A stretch of DNA of 64,000 nucleotides, from NCBI RefSeq assembly GCF_000026545.1, contig NC_011601.1; one strand, written 5' to 3'. Every line of letters begins with the position of its first letter. The stretch's first letter is position 1. This document shows, piece after piece, positions 34,409 to 62,436 of this stretch. The notes under the pieces are model-generated. The model searched no databases and was not told the origin of the DNA. It saw nothing but the letters and a program-made list of their open reading frames with translations. This DNA comes from Escherichia coli O127:H6 str. E2348/69 (lineage in GTDB: Bacteria > Pseudomonadota > Gammaproteobacteria > Enterobacterales > Enterobacteriaceae). Position numbers and translations under genes: made by a program.

Positions 34409-35116
34409 ATGAATACCCAACGAAAATACGGGAGAACCTGGCATTACCCCTTCTCTCCAGGCACCACCAGCGATGACCGCATTAACACCGATTACTGGCA
34501 GGATTTAAAGGCCATCACGCAATTGGTGCACACAGAAAAACTCGATGGCGAAAATAACTGCCTTAACCGCTACGGCGTGTTTGCCCGCTCCCATGCCACG
34601 CCTACGCAGTCGGCATGGACCTATAAAATTCGCCAACGCTGGCAACTGCTGAAAAACGATCTCGGCGACCTGGAGTTGTTTGGTGAAAATCTCTACGCCG
34701 TTCATTCCATTGAATACCGCGCGCTGGAACAGGACTTTTACCTGTTTGCCGTTCGCTGCCAGGATATGTGGCTGAGCTGGGAAGAGGTGCAGTTTTACGC
34801 CGCTCTGTTTGATTTCCCCTGCGTTCCCGAAATCTCCGGCCCGCAGCCGGGGAATGATGAAAAAAGCTGGCAACGTGATTTTCTGGCGCTGGCCAATGCG
34901 CGCGGCACATTCGATCCCTGGGATACGCAAACCTGGCAACCCTGTACGCTGGAAGGCATTGTCAGCCGAAATCATGATGCGTTTTCTGTCGCTGACTTTT
35001 CGCATAACGTCTTCAAGTATGTGCGCAAAAATCATGTCAAAACCACTGTGCACTGGAAACGCCACTGGCAACGGGCGCGGATGGCCCATGAGTTCGTTTA
35101 TGGAGAACAGTCATGA
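34409..35116 (+). CDS. RNA-ligase-like nucleotidyltransferase (Rnl2/DraRnl-like), 235 aa
   Basis: Covalent nucleotidyltransferase motif I KxDG(x)N ([10 protein letters not shown]), candidate motif III (LELFGENLY), motif IV (LEGIVSR) and motif V lysines (FKYVRKNH) in the canonical order; 4-bp ATGA overlap with the next gene. Confidence 0.6.
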
Positions 35117-36225
35117 TTTGGCAACTTACCGACGATAAACGCTGGTCGGCGCTACGTCAGCGTTTTAGCTGGGTTGAGGAGATGCATCACACGCCACAAG
35201 ACCCTGAGCATCATGGTGAAGGCGACGTCGGCGTACATACCGAAATGGTGCTTAACGCCCTCATTACTCTGCCAGAATTCCAGCAACTCCCCGCTCAACA
35301 GCAGGAAGTTTTATGGGCGGCGGTGTTATTGCATGATGTTGAAAAGCGCAGCACTACCGTGCAGGAAAACGGACGTATTCAGTCTCCTGGTCATGCTCGT
35401 CGGGGCGAACTGACGGCCCGACAAATTTTATGGCGCGATATCCCAACGCCGTTCGTGCTGCGCGAGCAAATTGTTGCACTGGTGCGTCTGCATGGGTTAC
35501 CGCTATGGTTACTGGAACGCCCGGAACCGGAGCGTTTGTTGCTCACGGCTGCAATGCGCATCGACACGCGTCTGCTCGCTTTGCTTGCTCGTGCCGATCT
35601 GCTTGGTCGCCAAAGCCCGGATCAGCAATCAATGCTGGAACGCATCGATCTGTTCGAGCTGTTTTGCCATGAGCAACAATGCTGGGGAAAAATGCGCCCG
35701 TTCGTTTCTGATTCCGCACGCTGGCATTACCTGACCCATGAGCAAAGTTCTCCTGATTTTGTTCCCTGGGGGGCTGAACCTTTTGAGGTTATTTTGCTGT
35801 GTGGCTTACCGGGTATGGGCAAAGATCGCTATATCAGTGAACAGTGCCAGGGAATTGACGTTATCAGCCTTGATGATATGCGGCGGCGAATCAATGCCAG
35901 CCCGGATGACAAAACCGCTACCGGGCGTATTGTGCAACAGGCAAAAGAAGAGGCGCGCGTTTTTTTACGCCAGAAAAAGCCGTTCATCTGGAATGCAACG
36001 AACATTACCCGCCAGCTGCGTAGCCAGCTCATCAGTCTGTTTACGGCTTACGGCGCACGAGTAAAAATCGTTTATCTGGAAGTGCCATGGGCGCAATGGA
36101 AGCAGCAAAATGCCAGACGCGAGTATGCAGTTCCTGAAGCGGTCGTGATGCGGATGGCCTCAAGGCTGGAAGTTCCTCAACCTGATGAAGCACATAGCGT
36201 GGAGTATCGGGTGATTGAAAGGTAA
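35113..36225 (+). CDS. HD-domain phosphohydrolase fused to a P-loop (polynucleotide-kinase-like) domain, 370 aa
   Basis: N-terminal HD motifs ([14 protein letters not shown] ... AVLLHDVEK) resembling the HD domain of CCA-adding enzymes; C-terminal Walker A-like GLPGMGKD and Walker B-like VISLDD. Confidence 0.6.
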
Positions 36226-36247
36226 ATAAATATCCTCCGGCATAGCC

Positions 36248-37797
36248 CTGTCTCTTATACACAAATCCCCACCCGGGGATTTGTGATGTCTGTCAGTCTG
36301 CTTTAGGGGGACTCTTTCCATCCGGTAGTTTCCTTCCTCCCCGGCAGCGATTTTTTGAACTTTTTCCTCACCTGTTGATCTTCTCTTATATTTCATTTTC
36401 TTCGGGTCTGTTATGGTACTTTCTGATTGTTATTCATGGGCTAACGAGCAGTTTGGACATGCCCGTCTCGGTGATCCGCGTCGTACACGACGCCTTGTGT
36501 CACTGGCCTCTTCTCTCGCTCAGCATGCAGGTCTTTCTATTGTGAAATCATCCCAGTCCACTGCTCAGGTTGAAGGTGCGTACCGCCTGATACGTAACCC
36601 GTCTGTGTCCCCGCAAGCCATTGCCGAAGCCGGATTTACCGCCACTGTAAGGGCATGTGAGGCTCATCCGCTGCTCCTCGCGCTGGAAGACACCACCACC
36701 ATTAACTTCAGTCACAGTACGGCATCTGATGACCTGGGGAATACCACCACTAACCCGAAGACGCGCGGGCTGCTGGCTCACTCTGTCCTGATGTACGCCC
36801 CCGACAGCGCCCTGCCAGTCGGTCTTATCGAACAGCAGCGCTGGAGTCGTGCCACGGACACCTACGGTGTTAAGCACCAGCGAAAAGAACGTCCCTATGA
36901 AGAAAAAGAAAGTTACCGCTGGCAGCAGGCTTCGGAGCGCATGGCCGAACGGCTGGGGGAGATACAGAAACGGGTAATCACTGTCTGTGACCGGGAAGCG
37001 GATATCTGGCATTACCTGCATTATAAAGTCAGCCACGGGCAGCGCTTCGTGGTGCGTGCAGCACAGAATCGCCGGCTGGAAGAAGCACCCGGCAAGCTCT
37101 TCGAACTGCCGGAAGTCCTGGCAACCGCGGGAAGCCACACGCTGAATGTGATGCAAAAAGGCGGGCGGGCAGCCCGCCAGGCCCGGATGTTCATCAGTTA
37201 CAGCGAAGTCAGCATAAAAAATCCCGACAACAGCGGCCAGGCGCTCCCGCTCACGTATGTCTGTTGCCGGGAGCAGGCAGAGGACGGCGCCTGCTGGCAT
37301 CTGCTGACGTCAGAAAAAGTGGCGAGTGCCGCCGATGCGCGACGTATCGTCAGCCATTACGAGCGACGCTGGCTGATAGAGGAATACCACAAGGCGTGGA
37401 AAAGTGGTGGTACATGTGTGGAATCGCTGCGAATGCAGACCCGGGATAACCTCGAGCGCATGGTGGTTATCAAGGCGTTTATCGCGGTGCGGGTGCTGGG
37501 CCTGCGGCAGGGCGGTATCAGTGAAGAAACACAAAATGACAGCTGTGAGAAAATACTGACGCCGACAGAGTGGAAACTGCTGTGGGTTAAGCTGGAAGGA
37601 AAACCGCTTCCGTCACAGATGCCGACACTGAAATGGGCCTGTCTGAAACTGGCGAAACTGGGGCGATGGCATGACAGCAAACGCACCGGTCGCCCCGGTT
37701 GGGTAGTCATGTGGGATGGCTGGTTCAGACTTCAGGATATGGTTGAGGGTTACCTGGTGATGAAGTCTCTTGATCAGGAGATCTGATCAAGAGACAG
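36248..37797 (+). mobile_element. IS4-family, IS50(Tn5)-like insertion sequence, copy 1 (1550 bp)
   Basis: Termini CTGTCTCTTATACACAAATCC and, on the other end, CTGTCTCTTGATCAGATCT (IS50 outside/inside-end-like); flanked by the 10-bp direct repeat CGGCATAGCC; internal 457-aa transposase. Confidence 0.85.
36413..37786 (+). CDS. IS50-like DDE transposase (457 aa)
   Basis: Clear homology to Tn5 Tnp (..GDPRRT.RLV....EGAYRFIRNP.., ..YERRWLIEEYHKAWKSG.., ..RLGGFxDSKRTG-like C-terminus) but not identical to Tn5. Confidence 0.85.
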   Translation: MVLSDCYSWANEQFGHARLGDPRRTRRLVSLASSLAQHAGLSIVKSSQSTAQVEGAYRLIRNPSVSPQAIAEAGFTATVRACEAHPLLLALEDTTTINFSHSTASDDLGNTTTNPKTRGLLAHSVLMYAPDSALPVGLIEQQRWSRATDTYGVKHQRKERPYEEKESYRWQQASERMAERLGEIQKRVITVCDREADIWHYLHYKVSHGQRFVVRAAQNRRLEEAPGKLFELPEVLATAGSHTLNVMQKGGRAARQARMFISYSEVSIKNPDNSGQALPLTYVCCREQAEDGACWHLLTSEKVASAADARRIVSHYERRWLIEEYHKAWKSGGTCVESLRMQTRDNLERMVVIKAFIAVRVLGLRQGGISEETQNDSCEKILTPTEWKLLWVKLEGKPLPSQMPTLKWACLKLAKLGRWHDSKRTGRPGWVVMWDGWFRLQDMVEGYLVMKSLDQEI

Positions 37798-37815
37798 CGG
37801 CATAGCCGGAGGTTT

Positions 37816-38496
37816 TTCAAATGCGCCTATAAGGCTCTCTTACCAGCCGCGCCCTAACAGGCGCACACGATCTGACATTTGCATCCAACTTCGTTACTTA
37901 CGGCCCGTAAACGGGCTGCCCGGATAGGGAATCGATAACTGCTCTCCCATTTTATCCTCTTCAAGCTGGTGCTTTATGTAATCCTGTATCTTCGCCGTGT
38001 TCTTACCCACCGTATCGACGTAATACCCTCTGCACCAGAACTCCCTGTTCCTGTACTTGAATTTCAAATCACCAAACTGCTCGTAAAGCATCAGACTGCT
38101 TTTCCCTTTCAGATATCCCATAAAGCCGGATACGCTCATTTTGGGCGGGATCTCCACAAGCATATGGATATGATCTGCACAGCATTCAGCTTCCAGAATC
38201 CGTACACTTTTCCACTCACACAGCTTTCTCAAAATACAGCCTATTGCTCTACGCTTCTCTCTGTAGAACACCTGTCTTCGGTATTTTGGCGCAAATACTA
38301 TGTGATATTTACAGTTCCATCGGGTGTGCGCTAAGCTCTTTTCGTTCCCCATTGGGACCCCCTTTTGATTTCTTGTTTGACACTTGCAGTTGCCAGACCG
38401 CAAGGTGTTTTAACAAATCAAAAGGGGTTTTAATAACTGGCTCAAAGCTGAAAGCTTTCCGGAACCCCCAGCCTAGCTGGGGGTTTTCTGTGCACA
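37816..38496 (-). mobile_element. IS200-like element (IS200/IS605 family); boundaries approximate
   Basis: Contains the IS200-type tnpA gene plus a terminal hairpin cccccagcctagctggggg (38466..38484); about 680 bp. Confidence 0.6.
37894..38403 (-). CDS. tnpA: IS200-family HUH (Y1) transposase TnpA
   Basis: 169-aa protein with the HuH motif (ADHIHMLVEIPPKMSVS) and the catalytic Tyr region (RGYYVDTVGKN) typical of IS200 TnpA. Confidence 0.85.
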   Translation of the reverse strand: MRSGNCKCQTRNQKGVPMGNEKSLAHTRWNCKYHIVFAPKYRRQVFYREKRRAIGCILRKLCEWKSVRILEAECCADHIHMLVEIPPKMSVSGFMGYLKGKSSLMLYEQFGDLKFKYRNREFWCRGYYVDTVGKNTAKIQDYIKHQLEEDKMGEQLSIPYPGSPFTGRK

Positions 38497-38532
38497 AAAA
38501 ACCGGGCGGTGGTGTCACCTGCCCGGCTTCTT
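38497..38532 (-). terminator. luxS intrinsic terminator
   Basis: Minus-strand hairpin gccgggcaggtgacaccaccgcccgg followed by ttttttg immediately 3' of the luxS stop. Confidence 0.65.
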
Positions 38533-38544
38533 TTGTTCCACTGA

Positions 38545-62410: not shown

Positions 62411-62436
62411 GTGCACAGAAAACCCCCAGCTAGGCT
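62411..62436. mobile_element. IS200-like terminal hairpin fragment (left half), split by IS50-like copy 2; other half at 63987..64000
   Basis: gtgcacagaaaacccccagctaggct + [IS] + agctaggctggggg reconstitutes the same hairpin seen in the IS200-like element at 38466..38496 (reverse complement). Confidence 0.55.

Follow-up and report, generated by a model that had tools for sequence, protein, structure and literature searches.

The window analysed here, a 64,000-nucleotide stretch of the genome of enteropathogenic Escherichia coli O127:H6 str. E2348/69 (contig NC_011601.1), carries the insertion sequence (IS) ISEc13 inserted in the right-end hairpin of a second mobile element, IS200C. Comparison of this insertion with those in other genomes makes it quite probable that ISEc13 and its close relatives with the same right end target dyad-symmetric sites of the form CCCC(Y)-N8/9-(R)GGGG. 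Most such sites are GC-rich hairpins, namely intrinsic terminators that separate convergent genes, the hairpins at the two ends of IS200, and palindromes resembling boxC or the repetitive extragenic palindromes (REP); the target duplication comprises the loop together with the innermost base pairs of the stem and is centred on the dyad. The position of the ISEc13 copy in the right-end hairpin (hereafter copy 1) is typical for this element and not accidental.

ISEc13 copy 1 and its target in IS200C

Copy 1 is a full-length element of 1550 bp on the plus strand (36248..37797), delimited by an end-pattern search and by its identity to annotated copies. The end pattern has four matches within the window as against 0.01 expected, the other two belonging to a second copy (copy 2, see below). 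All of its nucleotides (1550/1550) are identical to the copies annotated in RefSeq as ‘IS4-like element ISEc13’ in E2348/69 and its plasmid pMAR2; a protein identical to its transposase bears the database name ‘transposase of ISEc13’; and the full element is found in 873 of 5426 complete E. coli genomes. Copy 1 represents ISEc13, a catalogued and already known member of the IS50 subgroup of the IS4 family, in intact form.

As a reference we read IS50 from plasmid pMAK2 (L167; L numbers designate loci throughout). The left terminal repeat of ISEc13, CTGTCTCTTATACACAAAT (36248..36266, plus strand), agrees with the outside end of IS50, CTGACTCTTATACACAAGT, at 17 of 19 positions, whereas the right terminal repeat, CTGTCTCTTGATCAGATCT when read inward (37779..37797, minus strand), agrees with the inside end, CTGTCTCTTGATCAGATCT, at all 19 and keeps both of its GATC sites. 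The transposase gene (36413..37786, plus strand), identified from its open reading frame (ORF), Pfam and PDB matches and an alignment, encodes a 457-aa Tn5-type DDE enzyme. This protein is a full-length homologue of the Tn5 transposase with 39% identity (PDB match with E=6e-84) and contains the Pfam domains PF14706 Tnp_DNA_bind (2.8e-19), PF01609 DDE_Tnp_1 (4.8e-07) and PF02281 Dimer_Tnp_Tn5 (9.7e-05). Its EDTT, CDREADI and Y-ERRWLIEEYHKAWK segments align with the positions of D97, D188, E326 and the YREK motif of Tn5, with the D, D, E and YREK residues conserved. Members of the IS4 family have a DDE transposase encoded by a single ORF with a Y-(2)-R-(3)-E-(6)-K motif (PMC2266710), and ISEc13 displays both. 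It also has the marks of the IS50 subgroup, i.e. the Tn5-type domain set and terminal repeats starting with 5'-CT like the ends of IS50, as well as a duplication of about one helical turn (about 9 bp), which measures 10 bp in copy 1 and 8 or 9 bp in 28 of the 29 other junction pairs.

Copy 1 is flanked by an exact 10-bp repeat, CGGCATAGCC (left copy 36238..36247, right copy 37798..37807), recognised by a direct-repeat search and from an uninterrupted allele. Upon removal of the element and one repeat, the flanks join as AATAAATAT-CCTCCGGC-ATA-GCCGGAGG-TTTTT, which folds into a hairpin with an 8-bp stem and a 3-nt loop (-16.7 kcal/mol, z=-3.95) and appears terminator-like on both strands in a simple terminator scan. 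The uninterrupted allele, ...ggtaaataaatatCCTCCGGCATAGCCGGAGGtttttcaaatg..., occurs at the same locus in E. coli strain 1105, and because of it the duplication is fixed at exactly 10 bp. The duplicated segment occupies positions 5–14 of a 19-bp palindrome, half a base from the loop centre; the split hairpin consists of a left part with the arm CCTCCGGC, the loop ATA and then GCC (36234..36247), and the remaining right arm GGAGG with the T-run TTTTT (37808..37817). The initial annotation of this stretch had proposed that the target was a perfect GC hairpin with a T-run behind it, duplicated over 10 bp at its centre, and that the element has IS50-like ends and a transposase clearly different from that of Tn5. 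The strain 1105 allele, the fold, the pMAK2 ends and the protein alignment bear out these points, and its placement of the staggered cut at the loop centre is right to within half a base.

The annotated gene order around copy 1 is emrB, an RNA-ligase-family gene, an ATP-binding-protein gene, ISEc13, the tnpA gene of IS200C (on the opposite strand) and luxS. To delineate the owner of the hairpin, the ISEc13-free reconstructed sequence was searched against all complete E. coli genomes. In 30 of them this locus has IS200C but no ISEc13, while copies of IS200C at unrelated loci match the reconstruction from exactly AATAAATATCC to just beyond ...TTTTCTGTGCAC (query positions 150/151-867), which places the hairpin inside IS200C, about 9 nt from its right tip. 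With boundaries derived from these other copies, IS200C occupies 36226..38495 on the minus strand and measures about 710 bp once ISEc13 and one copy of the duplication are subtracted; its right tip (~36226) and left tip (~38495) are each placed to ±1–2 nt owing to the flanking A-runs. Its tnpA lies at 37894..38352 (minus strand; RefSeq annotation of the identical E2348/69 region), and its left-end hairpin, CCCCCAGC-CTA-GCTGGGGG (38465..38483), is unoccupied. The element has the hallmarks of the IS200/IS605 family, viz. a length of ~707 bp, a Y1 transposase gene, subterminal hairpins and a left-end terminator. The left-end hairpin of IS200 (nt 12–34) is a terminator active in both directions, which protects the element against transcription entering from outside (PMC4513863).

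In some genomes the cassette formed by the two genes upstream of ISEc13 and luxS occur with neither IS. For instance, in the O145:H28 strain RM12761 (L142), which lacks IS200C, the stop codon is followed directly by AAAAAACCGGGCGGTGGTGTCACCTGCCCGGCTTCTTTT; the native terminator of this strain, AAAAAACCGGGCGG...GCCCGGCTTCTTTT, is shared with luxS, and in the window it lies beyond IS200C. IS200C sits precisely where the ATP-binding-protein gene's stop codon meets the A-run of this native terminator, and other E. coli provide alleles in which it is present or absent (L141, L142). The order of events is that a cassette with its native terminator acquired IS200C directly after the stop codon, following which ISEc13 entered the right-end hairpin of IS200C. 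A scan locates the native terminator-like hairpin of the window, CCGGGCGG...GCCCGG followed by CTTCTTTT, between the ATPase gene and luxS at about 38502..38534. This is the real terminator region of the cassette, which is intact, yet now lies 2.3 kb 3' of the stop codon. The exact copy-1 junction with full coverage is found only in three assemblies of E2348/69, with two other genomes matching partially at 93% identity; hence the insertion appears to be recent.

Most insertion sites of ISEc13 are centred on palindromes

The junctions that we surveyed came from ten copies in one complete genome, viral contigs, one genome per species, metagenome contigs and 16 further complete E. coli genomes. 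As a loose left-end pattern produced false ends in some metagenome contigs (apparent lengths of 1402-1539), these contigs were excluded as pairs and contributed only right flanks; the transposase variants P0004, P0006 and P0007 were also examined for extra sites, but being mostly on short contigs they added few new junctions. A duplication was present in 30 junction pairs, with a length of 8 bp in 19, 9 bp in nine, and 10 bp and 7 bp in one each.

A Watson-Crick palindrome of at least 5 bp lies within 1 nt of the duplication centre at 23 of these 30 sites, as against 4.8% of random window positions (p~8e-25), thereby extending to other copies the hairpin-centred targeting that the initial annotation had suggested for copy 1. 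Palindromes of at least 7 bp are found at 11 of the 30, as against 0.46% of random window positions. The dyad axis coincides exactly with the duplication centre in 17 of the 23 palindromic sites, and the parity of the duplication matches that of the palindrome in 19 of them (p=0.0013). ISEc13 shows the behaviour of elements whose insertions are concentrated in palindromes at a fixed position relative to the dyad. Many of the sites are terminators located just 3' of a stop codon or between convergent genes, such as those at agp/yccJ, ybaY/MGMT-family gene, satP/mog, symE, aaeR/tldD and the ibs/sib loci.

Moreover, the same sites have been hit independently, often in both orientations. Hot spots of this kind include a prophage hairpin (L007/L012/L016 versus L017/L126), a second prophage site (L002 versus L021), ibs/sib hairpins (L164 versus L165, and also L024 and L048 in Escherichia whittamii) and the agp-yccJ hairpin, where the duplication is 9 bp in one case (L004) and 8 bp in the other (L174). 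We also observed a hairpin beside a tRNA-Pro gene that is occupied with an 8-bp (L163) or a 9-bp duplication (L176). These one-base differences suggest that the stagger is flexible and the hits were independent, or that one base pair was changed afterwards. The left-end hairpin of IS200 is a hot spot shared by copy 2 of the window, L161, L098 and L080/L112, and the junction between the IS200 left end and ISEc13 is present in 254 complete genomes, in many of them on plasmids. In the right-end hairpin of IS200, the very nucleotide used by copy 1 has been reused, with the opposite IS end joined to it, in Citrobacter (L044), Salmonella diarizonae (L051) and gut metagenomes (L072, L080).

Copy 2 (62437..63986, plus strand; end-pattern search) is flanked by the 9-bp duplication AGCTAGGCT (62428-62436 and 63987-63995). 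Its target, rebuilt as AAAA-CCCCCAGC-TAG-GCTGGGGG, is the left-end terminator hairpin of a second IS200C, whose tnpA starts 126 nt downstream, past the end of the window; here the duplication falls exactly on the loop centre.

A C-tract and G-tract consensus flanks the duplication

For the target sequence we compiled 77 non-redundant half-sites, i.e. flanks read outward from the tip of the IS. Positions 10-13 are 87-99% purine and 64-83% G, and weaker signals are seen as C/Y at positions 1-2 and R/G at positions 7-9, yielding the consensus 5'-CCCC(Y)-N8/9-(R)GGGG-3' for the complete target. A strict form of the G-tract rule holds for 64% of the half-sites as against 1.0% at random (p~3e-77). 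G-tract arms are also borne by sites that form no hairpin (L002, L003, L014, L082, L160 and L162). Whereas the terminator-like hairpins in the background DNA of all the loci comprise 20 with the C-tract first, 11 mixed and 10 with the G-tract first, no G-first hairpin occurs among the ISEc13 insertion sites. A hairpin alone is insufficient for targeting by ISEc13.

The two halves of a site are complementary beyond what the consensus imposes (180 pairs versus 136 +/- 7.6 in shuffles), and among matches to the motif, palindromes are longer at insertion sites than in background DNA (Mann-Whitney p=0.004). Genuine palindromes are favoured, and the cause could lie in the enzyme, in DNA structure or in selection against genic insertions.

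Several simpler rules were rejected. CCCY-N8-10-RGGG alone is too common to be a sufficient target rule. There is no orientation bias with respect to the T-run or the upstream gene, for both orientations occur, even at one site. A fixed distance from G-tract to cut is contradicted by tracts that begin 0-1 nt past the duplication, and so the rule is one of centring on the dyad and not of a fixed ruler. Specific homing to IS200 fails as most sites are not IS200, from which it follows that the IS200 hairpins simply fit the general rule well.

Proposed mechanism and alternative explanations

Judging by its kinship with Tn5, ISEc13 would move by Tn5-style cut-and-paste. We propose that a dimeric transpososome captures a duplex target symmetrically, tolerating a stagger of 8-9 bp with extremes of 7 and 10, and that each protomer would read the G-tract just outside its own strand-transfer position. 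Such symmetric capture, with one G-tract read per protomer, would account for the matching parities, for the use of single sites in both orientations and for the exclusive use of sites with the C-tract first. Settling in terminator loops and in other mobile elements would probably amount to a low-cost ‘safe site’ strategy. By analogy with IS200-family transposases, which need such hairpins, ISEc13 would disable IS200C by splitting this structure. The IS200C around copy 1 is probably immobilised, given that its split subterminal hairpin is of the kind that IS200/IS605 transposases need, and that around copy 2 probably likewise, with its protective terminator split too.

Several observations weigh against our proposal. 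Seven of the 30 sites lack a palindrome of at least 5 bp (e.g., L160 in ygfK and L002 and L003 in prophage genes), and some of these non-palindromic sites offer only one good G-tract arm; hence the dyad consensus is a preference and not a requirement. Each half-site holds ~5.8 bits of information, which predicts far more sites than are used: CCCY-N8-10-RGGG arises by chance about every 5 kb, with ~9 expected per 61 kb in shuffles. As the motif is too common, something beyond it, such as extended palindromy, DNA structure or post-insertion selection, has to contribute. All the insertions are natural survivors, and as genic ones are removed by purifying selection, intergenic hairpins are over-represented. 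Copy 1 is itself unusual in its 10-bp duplication, its half-base displacement from the centre and its arms, CCTCC/GGAGG, which are not a pure tract. Lastly, the literature that we searched yielded no transposition assay for ISEc13.

The commonness of the motif, set against few used sites and frequent reuse, also speaks for an alternative that we regard as unlikely while taking it seriously, namely that the transposase or a host factor recognises the structure of an extruded cruciform or of a single-stranded hairpin (at a replication fork or during transcription termination) and not the duplex sequence. The bias for C- and G-tracts would then be no more than a reflection of how readily particular hairpins extrude or how well they persist. 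The covariation of the site halves beyond the consensus, the longer palindromes of the insertion sites that match the strict motif, and a duplication that covers the loop and inner stem on the dyad are all in keeping with this explanation. However, the covariation can also stem from a pool of double half-sites that consists mostly of real hairpins and from which genic insertions have been purged. Moreover, most of the seven sites with no hairpin of at least 5 bp still have G-tract arms, and no G-first or mixed hairpin has been used although these make up about half of the background terminator-like hairpins. For these two reasons a reading by sequence fits better than a reading by shape. A more specific proposition, which we consider doubtful, is that target capture in the ISEc13 clade is gated by DNA shape: the substrate would be an extruded or easily extruded C-first GC hairpin, with the transfers symmetric about the loop and a stagger of 8-10 bp adapting to the hairpin. 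Were this so, ISEc13 would represent a natural ‘terminator-homing’ cut-and-paste system with a defined target substrate for the Tn5 family, and the 35-bp palindromic remnants described below would be a distinct product of hairpin-embedded insertions. We know of no target-bound structure for the Tn5 family.

It is far less probable that there is no real preference, with insertion being near-random as for Tn5 and only the harmless sites surviving. The data do consist entirely of surviving natural insertions, and most sites are intergenic, between convergent genes or within prophages and IS elements. Nevertheless, selection cannot produce the exact centring on the dyad (17/23), the matching of parity or the single polarity; the same G-tract arms recur at the genic sites L160 (ygfK), L010 and L002/L003; the same nucleotide has been reused in both orientations in different genera (L044 in Citrobacter and L051 in Salmonella); and only 4.8% of random positions reach the palindrome criterion. 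The exact centring, the polarity and the consensus shared by the genic sites favour a preference that arises from the transposition reaction over one that arises from selection.

Finally, we give almost no credence to the reading of the initial annotation, in which an uncatalogued IS50-group element disrupts the intrinsic terminator of the cassette, since, for all that the hairpin and T-run are terminator-like and lie 9 nt after the stop codon and the transposase is just 39% identical to that of Tn5, the element, while rightly placed in the IS50 group, is 100% identical in nucleotide sequence to annotated ISEc13, and the hairpin is part of IS200C and missing from alleles without it, where a different, native terminator follows the stop codon.

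Under our preferred explanation of duplex targeting by C- and G-tract arms, a close relative of Tn5 obeys a quantitative target rule, i.e. a C-tract, 8-9 bp and a G-tract, centred on the dyad and with a flexible duplication length. Such a rule would allow ISEc13 to build up within other ISs and in the gaps between convergent genes without burdening the host much; it would also lead to the repeated disabling of IS200 by ISEc13 and to inversions and deletions seeded between its copies.

Rearrangements, remnants and relatives

Several loci display an ISEc13 with the left tip of IS200 on one side and the right tip on the other, the interior of IS200 having been replaced (L080, L090, L094, L106, L115 and L127 from gut metagenomes, and also E. 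coli plasmids). The best explanation is that ISEc13 struck a single IS200 in each of its hairpins and that the two resulting copies then recombined. Other copies, L008/L009 (CP148541.1) and L159 (pMAR2), are without matching duplications, and their flanks pair crosswise: the left flank of L008 with the right flank of L009 gives CTCCCCAA, and the left flank of L009 with the right flank of L008 gives CGAACCAG. This crosswise pairing shows inversion or recombination between ISEc13 copies.

ISEc13 has inverted-repeat structures close to both of its ends. A perfect 11-bp hairpin, CACAAATCCCC-ACCC-GGGGATTTGTG (36260..36285), begins 12 nt inside the left end, and a 13-bp inverted copy of the right end lies just inside that end as GTCTCTTGATCAG-GAGAT-CTGATCAAGAGAC (37765..37795). 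They possibly block read-through from the split terminator or take part in regulating the transposase. A solo 35-bp perfect palindrome, CTGTCTCTTGATCAG-GAGAT-CTGATCAAGAGACAG, corresponds to the ISEc13 right end with a perfected version of this inverted copy. It was found at L170-L172 (the E. coli lldD-trmL intergenic region), L028-L033, L039, L045, L051-L053, L066, L092 and L129; in many E. coli genomes such remnants are embedded in hairpins that resemble boxC or REP, and they occur also in Serratia, Budvicia and Salmonella. The 35-mer is matched in 1837 genomes as against 873 with the full IS, and all of the 25 matches listed are perfect. None of 14 distinct remnants has a clean duplication around it, and several are flanked by sequences that repeat one another in inverted orientation, the loop included. 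The remnants may have arisen by near-precise deletion followed by palindrome correction. Their origin as simple slippage scars was rejected, as it predicts intact duplications, which 0/14 show.

An older ISEc13-like copy in strain 82.0312 (L169) is ~97% identical, frameshifted, 1539 bp long and without a duplication. This copy lies close to a tRNA-Arg gene, is common to many E. coli genomes and is seen in metagenome loci (L067, L069, L073 and others); a partial copy adjoining an IS200C is found in the same region. Other Gammaproteobacteria harbour relatives whose right end is identical or almost identical and which are likewise flanked by GC arms; they come from a metagenome-assembled genome of Vibrionaceae (L054-L061), Budvicia (L035-L042), Serratia silvae (L027-L033) and Escherichia whittamii (L047-L049). 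In the Vibrionaceae genome all eight right-end flanks follow the terminator pattern of 8-9 nt, a GC arm and a T-run. The site preference seems to be a property of the clade.

The two-gene cassette upstream of copy 1 (34409-36225), situated between emrB and luxS, encodes the RNA-ligase-family and ATP-binding proteins from genes that overlap at their stop and start codons. The annotation of O145:H28 RM12761 treats the second gene of the cassette as a pseudogene, interrupted by an internal stop. The locus can be annotated as two nested known mobile elements, ISEc13 in IS200C, 3' of this cassette.

Comparison with known target-selective elements

For Tn5 the duplication is fixed at 9 bp and the symmetric consensus, A-GNTYWRANC-T, is weak. 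ISEc13 resembles Tn5/IS50 in the architecture of its transposase (an N-terminal DNA-binding domain, a DDE domain and C-terminal dimerisation) and in length (1550 bp versus 1534 bp for IS50). It differs in its diverged protein, whose alignment shows no Met where the Tn5 inhibitor starts, in its duplication of 8 or 9 bp (rarely 7 or 10) and in a strong consensus directly outside the duplication. As Tn5 is prized for near-random insertion, a cousin that has near-identical ends yet is highly selective about its sites provides a natural contrast by which the residues that set target choice in this enzyme family may be found.

Elsewhere in the IS4 family, IS231A prefers GGG(N5)CCC inside a 10-12 bp duplication, and IS186 prefers sites with a G-tract followed by a C-tract. 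IS231A differs from ISEc13 in this opposite polarity, in having the tracts inside the duplication and in belonging to another subgroup of the family. In the IS4 family it is known that specificity can reside in the target arms on either side and that the duplication can vary in length (PMC2266710); in addition to the family itself, IS231A and the other members with conserved target arms share with ISEc13 a symmetric GC-rich signal, a variable duplication and specificity in the arms (PMC2266710; Hallet et al. 1994, cited therein).

The ISs that target REP sequences include ISRm22 (IS4 family), IS1397 and ISKpn1 (IS3 family), and IS621, ISPa11 and ISPpu9/10 (IS110 family) (PMC1525189). Like ISEc13, they insert in short extragenic palindromes, with all or most copies so placed and the transposase thought to make the choice (PMC1525189). 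They differ in that each is tied to one repeat family in one host, whereas ISEc13 uses a generic class of C-tract/G-tract hairpins; the IS110-family members are further set apart by their RNA-guided DEDD chemistry. IS1272/TnSha1, of the IS1182 family in staphylococci, inserts in terminator hairpins without a duplication and with partial deletion of the target; it is similar to ISEc13 in its use of terminator hairpins and in repeated hits on the same hairpin in both orientations (PMC4923244). In contrast to ISEc13, which duplicates the loop, keeps all target bases and has a tract consensus, it inserts in the stem and has no reported primary-sequence consensus. Bacterial class C group II introns also home to intrinsic terminators as harmless sites. 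As retroelements they reverse-splice into single-stranded DNA directly behind the terminator stem, a chemistry unrelated to that of ISEc13.

In the literature (ISfinder was outside our scope) we found no paper describing a target rule for ISEc13, which is mentioned only in passing, and nothing specific on terminator or palindrome targeting by the IS4 family; ISEc13 is absent from the supplements of ‘IS4 family goes genomic’. Taken together with the systems above, ISEc13 joins the known class of palindrome-seeking ISs, with a rule of its own that is apparently undescribed.

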